20,565 nucleotides of DNA from a virus. Below the pieces are notes generated by a model. The model was not told the origin of the DNA. It saw only the letters and a program-made list of their open reading frames with translations, and made no database searches. Location: the UHGV virus genome UHGV-0070025. One strand, given 5' to 3'. This document shows, piece after piece, positions 1,711-4,447 of this stretch; the stretch's first letter is position 1; each line of letters begins with the position of its first letter. A program made the translations under genes and the position numbers.

Positions 1711-1760
1711 TTGTTGATTTTTCCCGAATCTGTGGTAAATTTGCTCTAACGATGGGCGTT
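1711..1760 (+). promoter_or_regulatory. late promoter pR'-like with putative Q-utilisation/pause region
   Basis: GGTAAATTTGCTCTAACGATGGG (1733-1756) closely resembles the lambda pR' -10 and initial transcribed region as I recall it (GGGTAAATTTGACTCAACGATGGG); candidate -35 TTGATT at 1714-1719. Confidence 0.55.
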
Positions 1761-1787
1761 TTATGCCTGACGTTAGAAGATTTTTTA

Positions 1788-1812
1788 CACCCCGCCGCCT
1801 GGCGGGTTTTTT
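1788..1812 (+). terminator. intrinsic terminator (tR'-like) about 40-60 nt downstream of the pR' start
   Basis: CCCGCC-GCCT-GGCGGG hairpin followed by TTTTTT. Confidence 0.75.
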
Positions 1813-1932
1813 ATGACTGAAATCGCGTCAGTACAGTAAACGCGCTGGTGGCGGTGAATACCTGTCTTTCAGCTTGCTGGCTTTTTCGACAAGAGTTATT
1901 GGTGTGTCACGTTAACCGGAAAAGGAAAAGAC

Positions 1933-2130
1933 ATGCTAAAACAGCAGGATATGACAGAAACCGCCAGAGTGGTGTTTAATGAATTAAGCGTTACCGACCC
2001 GGCGACAGTCGGGGAGATAGCGCAGAATACTTACCTTTCACGCGAACGCTGCCAGTTAATACTGACTCAGCTGGTTATGGCGGGTCTGGCAGACTATCAG
2101 TTCGGTTGTTACAGACGCCTTCCGCAGTGA
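1933..2130 (+). CDS. small hypothetical protein, possible helix-turn-helix
   Basis: 65 aa; AAGGAAAAG RBS 6 nt upstream of ATG; segment TVGEIAQNTYLSRERCQLIL looks HTH-like; stop codon sits inside a terminator hairpin. Confidence 0.5.
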   Translation: MLKQQDMTETARVVFNELSVTDPATVGEIAQNTYLSRERCQLILTQLVMAGLADYQFGCYRRLPQ

Positions 2131-2144
2131 AGGCTTTTTTATTT
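2117..2144 (+). terminator. intrinsic terminator
   Basis: GCCTTC-cgcagt-GAAGGC hairpin followed by TTTTTTATTT. Confidence 0.7.
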
Positions 2145-2158
2145 GTGGTAAATGGGCG

Positions 2159-2187
2159 GCTGGTGGGTGTTAGGGGCACCCACCAGC
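2159..2187 (+). promoter_or_regulatory. 11-bp perfect stem hairpin following a second TGTGGTAAAT motif
   Basis: GCTGGTGGGTG-ttagggg-CACCCACCAGC; no U-tract; directly preceded by TGTGGTAAAT (2144-2153), identical to the pR' -10 region at 1731-1740. Confidence 0.35.
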
Positions 2188-2280
2188 CATCTGCTCATGC
2201 GTCCGGATCACAAGCAAACCTCAGGCCCACTGCTTTGCGCAAAAGCAGAATGAGCCTATCAGAGACAGGCTTAATGATCC

Positions 2281-3365
2281 ATGCTTAATACTGTAAAAAT
2301 ATCCAGTTGTGAGTTAATCAACGCCGACTGCCTGGAATTTATCCGGTCGTTACCCGAAAATTCTGTTGACCTGATAGTCACGGACCCGCCGTACTTTAAA
2401 GTGAAGCCTGAGGGCTGGGATAACCAGTGGAAGGGCGACGATGATTACCTGAAGTGGCTGGACCAGTGTCTGGCGCAGTTCTGGCGGGTGCTGAAACCTG
2501 CCGGAAGTCTTTACCTGTTCTGTGGTCATCGCCTGGCATCTGATATCGAAATCATGATGCGTGAACGCTTCAGTGTGCTGAACCATATTATCTGGGCGAA
2601 GCCGTCCGGACGCTGGAACGGATGCAACAAGGAAAGGCTGCGGGCGTATTTCCGTGACTAAACAAGGAAGGGCGGGGGGCTTTTTCCCCCGCCACAGAGC
2701 GCATTCTGTTCGCGGAACATTATCAGGGGCCGTATCGTCCGAAAGATGCCGGGTATGCGGCGAAGGGCAGTGCACTGAAACAGCATGTGATGGCCCCGCT
2801 GATTTCTTACTTTCGTGATGCGCGCGCGGCCCTGGGGATAACGGCAAAACAGATTGCAGATGCCACAGGAAAGAAAAACATGGTGTCGCACTGGTTCAGT
2901 GCCAGTCAGTGGCAGCTACCGAATGAAAGCGATTATCTGAAATTACAGGCGCTGTTTGCCCGGGTGGCAGAAGAGAAGCATCGGCGTGGTGAACTGGAAA
3001 AGCTCCACCACCAGCTGGTGGATACGTATACCTCACTGAACCGGCAGTATGCGGAGCTGCTGAGTGAATATAAACATCTGCGGCGGTATTTTGGCGTGAC
3101 GGTGCAGGTGCCGTATACCGATGTGTGGACGCATAAACCGGTGCAGTTCTATCCCGGGAAACATCCGTGCGAAAAACCGGCAGAAATGCTGCAGCAGATA
3201 ATCAGCGCAAGTAGCCGTCCTGGTGATCTGGTTGCGGATTTTTTCATGGGGTCGGGTTCAACGGTAAAAGCGGCGATGGCACTGGGGCGTCGTGCGATTG
3301 GTGTTGAGCTGGAGACCGGACGTTTTGAGCAGACAGTCAGGGAAGTTCAGGATTTAATCGTTTGA
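2281..3365 (+). pseudogene. beta-class (DPPY...FxGxG) DNA N6-adenine/N4-cytosine methyltransferase, interrupted between the two halves
   Basis: N-terminal part (2281-2661, frame 1) carries motif IV LIVTDPPY. C-terminal part (frame 3, open from 2658, ORF-track start 2787, to 3365) carries motif I DFFMGSGST. Frame 1 stops at TAA 2659-2661; frame 3 has TGA at 2655-2657. The halves cannot be joined without a frame change. Confidence 0.75.
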
Positions 3366-3414: not shown

Positions 3415-3490
3415 GGCCCTTTAGCTCAGTGGTGAGAGCGAGCGACTCATAATCGCCAGGTCGCTGGTTCAAATCCAGCAAGGGCCACCA
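3415..3490 (+). tRNA. tRNA with anticodon CAT (Ile2-lysidine or Met type)
   Basis: 76 nt cloverleaf: acceptor GGCCCTT/AAGGGCC, D-arm GCTCAGTGGTGAGAGC, anticodon loop CTCATAA, T-loop TTCAAAT, 3' CCA encoded. Matches the ileZ position of Stx-type phages. Confidence 0.9.
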
Positions 3491-3497
3491 TCACATA

Positions 3498-3574
3498 CCG
3501 CCATTAGCTCATCAGGATAGAGCACCAGCCTTCGAAGCTGGTTGCGCGGGGTTCGAGTCCTCGATGGCGGTCCA
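3498..3574 (+). tRNA. tRNA-Arg (anticodon TCG)
   Basis: 77 nt: acceptor CCGCCAT/ATGGCGG, anticodon stem CCAGC/GCTGG with loop CTTCGAA, T-loop TTCGAGT, CCA encoded. Confidence 0.85.
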
Positions 3575-3587
3575 TTATCTGTACCCT

Positions 3588-3664
3588 GCGTTGTTAGCTC
3601 AACCGGACAGAGCAATTGCCTTCTAAGCAATCGGTCACTGGTTCGAATCCAGTACAACGCGCCA
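3588..3664 (+). tRNA. tRNA-Arg (anticodon TCT)
   Basis: 77 nt: acceptor GCGTTGT/ACAACGC, anticodon stem ATTGC/GCAAT with loop CTTCTAA, T-loop TTCGAAT, CCA encoded. Confidence 0.9.
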
Positions 3665-3710: not shown

Positions 3711-3925
3711 CTCACAATTCAGACGGTTGACAGTTGTCTGTTTTGCGGGGAGTTTGTTAAAAGAAACTGGCATGGTGAATCCCCCTGTGCGGATGGGCAA
3801 TCAGCGAGTAGGTATATGGGATAATCGCGGATTCAGGTGCTGGTACTGAATTCACCGGGAGGCACCCGGCACCATGCAATGGCACATAGCGCCACTCTCC
3901 AGCCCCTCTCCGGAGGGGCTTTTCT
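3711..3925 (+). ncRNA. candidate structured small RNA, tandem unit A
   Basis: Begins with CTCACAATTCAG then TTGACA; shares conserved blocks with unit B (TTTGTTAAAA, GCATGGTGAATCCCCCTG, CACCGGGAGGCACCCGGCACCATG); ends in terminator GCCCCTC-tccg-GAGGGGC + TTTTCT (3902-3925). No convincing ORF. Confidence 0.35.
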
Positions 3926-4114
3926 GTGCCGGATACATCACAGTTTCTGGAACCTTAGGTACTACAGTATCAGTCAGGGTGCTATATTTTCAGATGTGAT
4001 GAAAGCCTGTCAGCAGGCAGGGCGTATCGGAAATGACCCAGTAGAGAAAACGTTGACTCAGATACCGGTGCTGAGTTACCGGGAAACCGGCATCACATGA
4101 CCGCTATCCTTCCA

Positions 4115-4178: not shown

Positions 4179-4412
4179 CTCACAATTCAGTAAGTTGACA
4201 GTTGCCTGTCAGACTGGGCATTTGTTAAAAAAATTTCGCATGGTGAATCCCCCTGAGCGGAGGGGCGACTGGTGACGGTATAATCTCTGATTATCAAAAC
4301 GAGAATGACGCGGGTTTAGTGGCACCGGGCTGAACTCACCGGGAGGCACCCGGCACCATGTGCATGATGATACAGATACGCGGCTTTAGCCCCTCTCCGG
4401 AGGGGTTTTCTT
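4179..4412 (+). ncRNA. candidate structured small RNA, tandem unit B (paralogue of unit A)
   Basis: Same block order as unit A, 468 bp downstream; contains a perfect TATAAT at 4279-4284; ends in terminator GCCCCTC-tccg-GAGGGG(T) + TTTTCTT (4389-4412). Confidence 0.35.
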
Positions 4413-4417
4413 GTGGG

Positions 4418-4447
4418 CAAAAAAAGCCCGCGCTGGGAGACGCGGGC
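4418..4447 (-). terminator. minus-strand intrinsic terminator, back-to-back with the unit B terminator
   Basis: On the minus strand: GCCCGCG-tctcccag-CGCGGGC followed by TTTTTTT (the plus-strand A-run at 4418-4425). Confidence 0.45.

Follow-up and report, generated by a model that had tools for sequence, protein, structure and literature searches.

Base-pair covariation suggests a probable pair of mutually exclusive folds in a conserved leader RNA upstream of an N6-adenine methylase gene in a lambdoid prophage

What lies between the Q antiterminator gene and the DNA methylase gene of a lambdoid prophage, and why does part of the late promoter seem to recur there, shortly before the methylase? 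This question is raised by UHGV virus genome UHGV-0070025, a stretch of 20,565 nucleotides (nt) that we refer to as the window. The window is an Escherichia coli lambdoid prophage, and strains 300709 and AH20K059 are 100% identical to it over positions 1650-2300. An earlier interpretation, made from the letters alone (the sequence-only reading), had proposed that a promoter resembling lambda pR' is followed by a short terminated leader, a small helix-turn-helix (HTH) gene, and then a second copy of the motif TGTGGTAAAT with a hairpin. It left three explanations for this last pair, namely a duplicated late promoter, a Q-engagement site, or an RNA element. The last of these is the one that our results bear out: the box and hairpin are the 5' end of a conserved leader RNA of roughly 130 nt, for which base-pair covariation suggests two mutually exclusive folds. 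Our favored interpretation, which we hold with moderate confidence, is that the interval is a late-operon leader with both transcriptional and translational layers of control, in which the leader RNA serves as a methylase switch. The genes, terminators, promoter and RNA elements discussed from the Q gene through to the methylase gene are all on the + strand.

The leader RNA occupies positions 2149-2283 and abuts the methylase start codon (AUG 2281-2283). The first loci for comparison were retrieved solely via a 65-amino-acid open reading frame (ORF) that precedes it, and pattern scans of viral contigs widened the set to 83 distinct versions of the leader; individual loci carry labels of the form L005. 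The element is found in Escherichia, Salmonella, Kluyvera, Klebsiella, Citrobacter, Buttiauxella, Mixta, Mangrovibacter and Scandinavium, and mean column identity over these genera (at least nine) is 81-85%, which is better than in the flanking coding sequence. The methylase relatives that we found are close homologues (at least 75% identity), and in 80 of 80 such loci the leader model has a match directly 5' of the methylase. Of these matches, 78 are complete, that of L169 is partial (88.5 bits), and that of L176 is cut by the end of the contig. Because single-base insertions and deletions and differing stop positions separate the versions of the element, its conservation does not come from coding. 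The many G-U pairs in the element place its structure on the + strand, i.e., the sense strand of the methylase. The minimum-free-energy (MFE) fold of positions 2140-2290 has a predicted energy of -65.3 kcal/mol (z = -5.06). When this same region was compared with the 4227 families of Rfam 15, there was no match at the gathering threshold; in a permissive search, the best family was P26, on the opposite strand and with 21 bits against a gathering score of 36 bits. Literature searches, which were limited in reach, found no described family that matches the leader RNA, and it appears to be undescribed.

We refer to the MFE fold as State I. It consists of helix A (2152-2157:2193-2198) stacked on a hairpin, P1 (2158-2169:2177-2188), and of helix C, which encloses a further hairpin, P3. 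The left arm of P1 contains the Chi sequence GCTGGTGG (2159-2166). Helix C pairs GGAUCA (2205-2210) with UGAUCC (2275-2280) and AAGC (2212-2215) with GCUU (2269-2272), while P3 pairs GGCCCA (2224-2229) with UGAGCC (2251-2256), including a C-A mismatch, and has an inner part at 2230-2236:2242-2248. The methylase AUG is also paired in this state. In a covariance-model alignment of the 83 sequences, which had been fitted to this structure, State I pairing is present in 96.0% of the alignment's cells, compared with 28-42% for slid controls. Moreover, 11 pairs have changed on both sides, compared with 3.1 in shuffled alignments, and none of 500 shuffles reaches 11. Compensatory changes are seen in P1 (L023, L236, L293 and L283), in helix C (L136 and L282) and in P3 (L017, L029, L071 and L283).

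The evidence for a second fold began with helix B (2192-2195:2213-2216), which was spotted by reading the sequence variation by eye, and which is incompatible with helix A and with helix C in its inner part. In alignments that were not fitted to helix B, its outer pair is C-G in 36 sequences, A-U in 23, U-A in 18 and U-G in 5, and is unpaired in none. When helix B is forced in folding, the result is State II, which combines helix B with P1, the inner part of P3 and two further helices seen in constrained folds: helix E, between UGGGC (2153-2157) and GCCCA (2225-2229), and helix F (2251-2256:2268-2273). State II leaves UGAUC-N-AUG (2275-2283) unpaired. The helices that are specific to this state are paired in 97.1% of cells, compared with 20-44% for slid controls. 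At the outermost column pair of helix F (2250:2274), which is an unpaired A-A in the window, G-C occurs 59 times and A-U 8 times. The alignment column that holds window position 2250 has a covarying partner in each state, and these two partners differ. Two divergent sequences, L136 and L282, exhibit compensation both in helix B and in the inner part of helix C. In L283, P1 and helix B have been rebuilt through many compensatory changes. The predicted energies of the two states are close in several species (e.g., L032, L010 and L015) and differ by about 9 kcal/mol in the window. The predicted dominant fold varies by species, with State I at about 100% in the window, State II at about 90% in L015 from Buttiauxella, and a mixture in L032.

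The two states differ in how they present the start of the methylase gene. This gene (2281-3365) is, as judged from sequence comparison, an N6-adenine methylase gene of the M.EcoGII family, beta-class N6_N4, and both of its halves match Pfam PF01555. Its intact homologue has 349 amino acids and is 95% identical to the methylase of phage 1720a-02. The link to M.EcoGII is made via this phage enzyme, which is very similar to M.EcoGII (PMC5778455). The family is reported to be unexpressed in the lysogen and to be deleterious when its expression is unregulated (PMC5778455). The copy in the window is broken by a 35-nt insertion, CCGTGACTAAACAAGGAAGGGCGGGGGGCTTTTTC, at about 2652-2686, which adds a stop codon and a strong hairpin, and therefore the leader in the window precedes a pseudogene. 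The leader itself is intact, and is identical to that of strains with an intact methylase gene. Among 5426 complete E. coli genomes searched, none has the insertion, and 1629 match a 161-nt segment of the methylase. We also observed that the insertion partly repeats the preceding AACAAGGAAAGG and can form a G/C hairpin with the following CCCCCGCC.

The sequence CTGATCYATG is conserved at the methylase start in nearly all loci, such that UGAUC lies one base 5' of the AUG. UGAUC is the complement of GAUCA in 16S rRNA; State I pairs it, and State II leaves it free. Its partner in State I, GGAUCAC (2205-2211), is identical in sequence to the 3' end of 16S rRNA (GGAUCACCUCCUUA). Given that UGAUC pairs with GGAUCAC and lies one base before the AUG, and that the methylase gene has no canonical Shine-Dalgarno sequence, we interpret UGAUC as a candidate non-canonical Shine-Dalgarno sequence, i.e., as a probable ribosome contact. 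Helix C would then contain a mimic of the anti-Shine-Dalgarno sequence that masks this contact.

The proposed transcriptional layer of control starts at the Q gene (887-1708; 273 codons). The Q protein matches Pfam PF03589 (E = 2e-49) and the lambda Q structure PDB 7ubm (E = 2e-38), and its residues 1-113 and 182-273 align to two structures of lambda Q, 7ubm and 4mo1. Judged by its sequence, it is a true lambda-family Q. Between the aligned parts is an insert of about 68 residues (approximately 114-181) that is not in lambda Q; it is rich in cysteine, resembles a zinc finger, with CxxC motifs, and is similar to the DnaJ zinc-finger domain (Pfam PF00684, a sub-threshold match of 28 bits). A pR'-type late promoter (1714-1741) begins 6 nt past the Q stop codon. 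Its best -35 element is TTGATT (1714-1719), the spacer is 16 base pairs (bp), the -10 element is TAAATT (1736-1741), and a TG at 1733-1734 (-15/-14) fits an extended -10. Alignment with NC_001416 confirms that the -10 and initial transcribed sequence are a near-copy of lambda pR', as had been proposed: GGTAAATTTG (1734-1743) and AACGATGGG (1748-1756) are identical to lambda, and the four bases between them are the only differences in this part. The latter sequence corresponds to the pause element, AACGAT followed by GGG, in which 9 of 9 bases equal those of lambda, and which is 6-7 nt 3' of the -10 in most of the leader types compared. The first A of AACGAT is the transcription start in lambda, where this -10-like element together with GGG holds sigma70, so that the polymerase pauses at +16/+17 and Q engages there. 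By analogy, we infer a start at A1748 and a pause near +16/+17 (1763-1764).

A leader RNA from this predicted start would consist of a 5' hairpin (1748-1774), a U/A-rich linker and the terminator tR' (stem 1791-1806, T6 1807-1812), in agreement with the earlier expectation of a short leader ended by a strong terminator. The tR' hairpin, found by a terminator scan and by folding, has a 6-bp stem made entirely of G/C pairs and followed by U6 (-12.6 kcal/mol). Homology places the 3' end of the RNA at 1807-1812, which would give it a length of 65 nt (1748-1812); the predicted fold of these 65 nt has an energy of -21.9 kcal/mol (z = -2.45). The same architecture is present behind related Q genes in many loci, i.e., the -10, 6-7 nt, AACGATGGG, a 5' hairpin of the form AACG...CGUU, a U/A-rich linker and a terminator, and homologous short leaders in other loci have 56-66 nt. 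With this layout and the lambda-family Q upstream, the reading as a pR'-type late promoter holds, and the promoter part of the interval is an ordinary member of the lambda pR' class. Like lambda pR'-qut-tR' and its 6S RNA, the window has its promoter directly after a lambda-family Q gene, the same 6-nt spacing between TAAATT and AACGATGGG, an intrinsic terminator after these and further terminators downstream. However, the leader is shorter than that of lambda (65 nt against 194 nt), the -35/spacer region, where the Q-binding element of lambda lies, differs, Q has its additional zinc-finger-like insert, and a gene and a second terminator separate tR' from the next late gene. The likeness to StxS that had been suggested applies loosely. 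Both are short terminated pR'-tR' transcripts, but StxS is a 258-nt transcript processed to 74 nt (PMC7547250), as against 65 nt as transcribed in the window. As a separate observation, short pR'-tR' leaders in other loci (L005, L025, L027, L032, L048, L054 and others) have AACGATGGG and the 5' hairpin in common and differ in their middle segments. One leader type carries GUAUGUCUACC, which is complementary to the ribosome-binding region of hha, and a related "type 2" leader with possible hha pairing occurs in 834 genomes, mostly of strains other than enterohaemorrhagic E. coli (EHEC).

Between tR' and the methylase leader is the ORF for a standalone protein of 65 amino acids (1933-2130). It has 333 homologues in databases, most of them named TrmB-family regulator, and relatives with 53-97% identity occur in more than nine genera. 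AlphaFold predicts three helices followed by two strands (H-H-H-beta-beta) with a mean predicted local distance difference test (pLDDT) score of 91. A Foldseek search with this model retrieved winged-helix domains of MarR, OhrR, IclR and O-methyltransferases, with template modeling (TM) scores of about 0.8. The match to Pfam TrmB is weak (E = 0.004), NCBIfam has no family for the ORF, and the protein contains only two cysteines. This ORF is a real, conserved winged helix-turn-helix gene. Its stop codon (2128-2130) lies inside the hairpin of a second intrinsic terminator (stem 2117-2134, T6 2135-2140; -8.9 kcal/mol by scan and folding), so the earlier description of a small HTH ORF ending within a terminator was accurate. 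In other genera, the stop-codon hairpin is retained through different sequences, and the U-tract is weaker. Upstream of the ORF, a conserved block (1873-1910) has the form CTTGCTG-N12-(C)AGAGTTAT..TGTCAC. It reads CTTGCTG-N12-CCAGAGTTATCTGTATGTCAC in most genera, and in L009-L029 it is about 25-65 nt 5' of the ORF. A Chi site (1844-1851) lies just 5' of this block. A consensus scan called no promoter in the block, which has no good -10 hexamer, and the 5' untranslated region of the ORF has no significant RNA structure (z = -0.26). On its sequence, the block may be a weak or activator-dependent promoter, or an operator.

The control that we propose for this arrangement would work as follows. 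Transcription from pR' would start at about A1748, after the Q gene, and Q would load at the sigma70-dependent pause element AACGATGGG. Without Q, the product would be the 65-nt RNA that ends at tR' (1791-1812). Polymerase modified by Q would read through both tR' and the second terminator (2117-2140). Translation would then form the next layer: State I, by pairing GGAUCAC with UGAUC and burying the AUG, would be the off state, and State II, with helices E, B and F and a single-stranded UGAUC-N-AUG, would be the on state. Since State I is predicted to be thermodynamically dominant in the window, the default there would be off, and two terminators together with a default-off leader would result in tight silencing of the methylase in lysogens. 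One candidate trigger is translation: ribosomes that finish the winged-helix ORF could restart at AUG 2152, which is 22 nt downstream and follows a weak GUGG/GUGA, and could thereby melt helix A and P1 and free a strand for helix B. The winged-helix protein itself and a small ligand are other candidates. A role as an RNA thermometer was rejected, as the pairing predicted at 30 C differs little from that at 42 C. More ambitiously, positions 2149-2283 could represent a new family of effector-responsive bistable riboregulators, flipped by the winged-helix protein, by coupled translation of the upstream ORF, or by a metabolite such as S-adenosylmethionine or S-adenosylhomocysteine. Such an element would gate a promiscuous DNA/RNA N6-methyladenine methylase and thereby confine methylation of the phage genome to lytic growth. 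We advance this extended proposal tentatively, as possible rather than probable.

How, then, should the second box and the hairpin be explained, if not by a leader RNA? An exact second copy of TGTGGTAAAT (2144-2153) does follow the second terminator, at the 5' flank of the leader RNA. A duplication of the late promoter, or another site for Q engagement, with the hairpin incidental, might be argued from its exact 10-nt match to the -10 region of pR', from the TGGGCG that follows both copies and from the resemblance of TGgTAAATg to an extended -10. However, the match is limited to E. coli-type sequences, and other genera have TGTGAAAAT or TGTGGAAAT in place of the box. Even the E. coli form has TAAATG, which lacks the T at -7, and no AACGAT pause element, and the consensus scan calls no promoter there. 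One repeat of a 10-mer in 20 kb is expected by chance, and the two exact occurrences are statistically unremarkable; with at most one mismatch, the motif has 5 matches in the 20 kb where 1.24 would be expected, and at least 5 are found in 2 of 100 shuffles. Most directly, a start about 7 nt downstream would drop AUGGGC from the transcript. This hexamer, which overlaps the box by its A and U, the final two bases of the latter, is paired in 99.8-100% of cells and covaries at one position, where both sides have changed in L029, so the box lies within a transcript rather than upstream of a start site. On the grounds of genus variation, missing elements and AUGGGC pairing, we rejected the box as a promoter, and we regard this explanation as highly improbable. 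Going by its sequence, the box may instead be a weak GUGG/GUGA Shine-Dalgarno plus a spacer and the AU of AUG 2152. This AUG is invariant, with GUGA/GUGG 3-6 nt upstream and seven nearly invariant first codons (MGGWWVL...), which would suit a small protein encoded in the conserved stretch. Yet the predicted products range from 3 to 46 codons with differing stop positions, the reading frame differs between lineages through single-base indels, and substitutions track pairing and not codon positions. With stops and frames so variable, a conserved peptide was rejected and is scarcely credible; a short regulatory upstream ORF at AUG 2152 is possible and forms part of our preferred model. The perfect hairpin seen after the box is present as well, with 12 bp (arms 2158-2169/2177-2188, 7-nt loop) rather than the 11 bp originally counted. 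Extended by AUGGGC:GCUCAU, it spans 2152-2198 (-32.6 kcal/mol, z = -5.65), is far beyond chance and is conserved in the comparative data. It could in principle act as DNA, without RNA function, if two Chi sites in inverted orientation or a hotspot of recombination marked a module junction. The left arm of P1 carries Chi, as does, in the window, the opposite strand of the right arm, and the window has 11 Chi sites against 0.96 expected from shuffles. Mosaic junctions occur at the hairpin in L003 and L004, which involve a Chi-containing repeat in a DUF3927 gene, and just past it in L005-type phages. Against this, only the + strand Chi is general, and the right arm varies by bulges and in ways that keep G-U or Watson-Crick pairs. 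L283 has kept the helix, by several compensatory changes, despite the loss of Chi, and the conserved covarying structure reaches 100 nt past the hairpin. L283 led us to reject Chi as the sole cause of the conservation of the hairpin arm, and a purely DNA-level function is very unlikely, but Chi may explain why junctions cluster at the hairpin.

The strongest rival to a two-state leader is one static fold, composed of P1, helix B, P3 and, as a pseudoknot, outer helix C, that acts as a constitutive translational brake or as an element for stability or processing. It is the strongest because helix B and outer helix C are topologically compatible, and could therefore form a pseudoknot in a single fold with no switch, and because helices A and E hardly vary, so that both are compatible with the data but not proven by them. 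It would also suit the prediction of about 100% State I in the window and E. coli-type sequences, where State II may require a factor or may never form. Further points weigh against our preferred interpretation. Inner helix C is supported by L136 and L282, which are divergent but related to each other, and it is not kept in L283; the fitting of the State I alignments to State I affects the counts for that state; UGAUC, if it is a Shine-Dalgarno sequence, is a non-canonical one; and a simple consensus promoter scan did not call pR' (8/12, threshold 9), because the -35 is weak, as expected for such promoters. It is also important to emphasize that everything functional in the model, namely the start, the pause, the ribosome-binding role and the direction of regulation, is deduced from sequence. 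Against a static fold stand the compensation in L136 and L282 in both helix B and inner helix C, which use the same strand, the two partners of the column of position 2250, one per state, and the similar predicted energies of two folds whose dominance differs by species. We judge it unlikely, and retain the two-state leader as our preferred interpretation. One other possibility concerns which RNA matters most: the 65-nt pR'-tR' transcript might be the main product, as a trans-acting Hfq-type small RNA like StxS or HnrS. It has the 5' hairpin, U/A-rich linker and terminator with U6 that such an RNA could have, terminated pR' leaders can be regulatory small RNAs (PMC7547250), and late regions are known to include the small RNA HnrS, which has 66 nt and comes from prophages (PMC13502914). 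StxS and HnrS, which we compared by description only, are likewise short terminated late-region RNAs of lambdoid prophages that are made in lysogens (PMC7547250, PMC13502914). However, the 65-nt leader has no complement to the hha ribosome-binding site, with duplex energies no better than those of shuffled sequences, and its type is present in many non-EHEC strains, unlike HnrS. Identity with HnrS was considered on the basis of size (65 versus 66 nt), and the distribution of the "type 2" leader does not fit that reported for HnrS. A role of the short RNA as the main product is thus somewhat unlikely, and it is compatible with the two-state methylase leader rather than an alternative to it.

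Several known systems resemble parts of this arrangement. In the com-mom operon of phage Mu, an mRNA hairpin locks the start region of a DNA-modification gene that can do harm, and a small protein gene lies directly 5' of it. The window likewise has a small protein gene upstream of a potentially harmful DNA-modification gene, with a start region that is predicted to be locked. However, Com is a zinc-finger RNA-binding protein, in contrast to the confidently predicted winged helix with its two cysteines in the window, and the RNA in the window is larger and has two predicted alternative global folds. The resemblance to Mu Com is, by this comparison, functional only. With riboswitches, translational attenuators and RNA thermometers, the leader has in common its 5' position and its proposed mutually exclusive helices, one of which would mask the start by means of a sequence like the anti-Shine-Dalgarno; it differs from them in belonging to none of the 4227 Rfam families and in the small predicted response of its pairing to temperature between 30 and 42 C. 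The C proteins of restriction-modification systems are also encoded by small helix-turn-helix genes upstream of a methylase gene. In contrast to those systems, that in the window has no restriction gene, its protein is a winged helix of the MarR/IclR/TrmB type and not an Xre-type HTH, and no C-box was identified.

The wider gene order of the window begins with a DUF968 gene (24-503) and a RusA gene (516-890), which is 5' of the Q gene. On the other side, three tRNA genes (3415-3664) are 3' of the methylase gene, followed by two tandem copies of the small RNA STnc100 (3741-3931, 130 bits; 4209-4418, 161 bits) and then by lysis genes. The tRNAs have a CAT anticodon (annotated as Ile in related records), Arg-TCG and Arg-TCT; strain 300709, which is otherwise identical, has only two tRNAs annotated at the corresponding place. 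Each STnc100 copy has an upstream repeat that contains TTGACA (3711-3798 and 4179-4266). Parts of the whole module match 2387 of the 5426 complete E. coli genomes. The terminator tR' forms a joint in the mosaic: phages with other Q types are homologous to the window from 1791 onwards, and those with the window's Q are homologous up to about 1812. The Chi sites of the window are on both strands, at 88, 140, 1844, 2159, 2180, 3008, 3014, 6463, 6900, 8273 and 10585, so that three of the 11 fall within the interval studied here; the largest number in any shuffle was 4. Some prophages (L003, 2864-2900; L004, 2862-2900) still have the ORF, but of the hairpin only its left arm. A deletion that takes out the methylase and the tRNAs explains this: the Chi-containing arm GGCTGGTGGGTG recombined with the similar GCTGGTGGCGGGTGTGGTGG in the DUF3927 gene (6540-6600 in L001). 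In Stx2k-type phages (L005, 2866-2980; L047; L086), only helix A and P1 are retained of the leader RNA. There, P1 is followed by an A/T-rich segment with a perfect TATAAT, and then by a different HTH gene that replaces the methylase.

Methylases of the M.EcoGII type modify nearly every adenine, are harmful if constitutive and are widely used as tools, and their silencing in prophages has so far been attributed simply to lysogenic repression. The tempting misreading of a duplicated pR' box is corrected by our results: the box is the edge of an RNA structure. Judging from its sequence and predicted folds, this leader RNA most likely keeps a toxic, non-specific adenine methylase untranslated until it is needed, and it would work like known switches that sequester a ribosome-binding site, within no described family that we found. 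If this is true, a two-state leader RNA absent from Rfam would act as a post-transcriptional safety lock on a classic Q-antiterminated operon, and the RNA, the small winged-helix protein and the methylase would together make a directly testable system.

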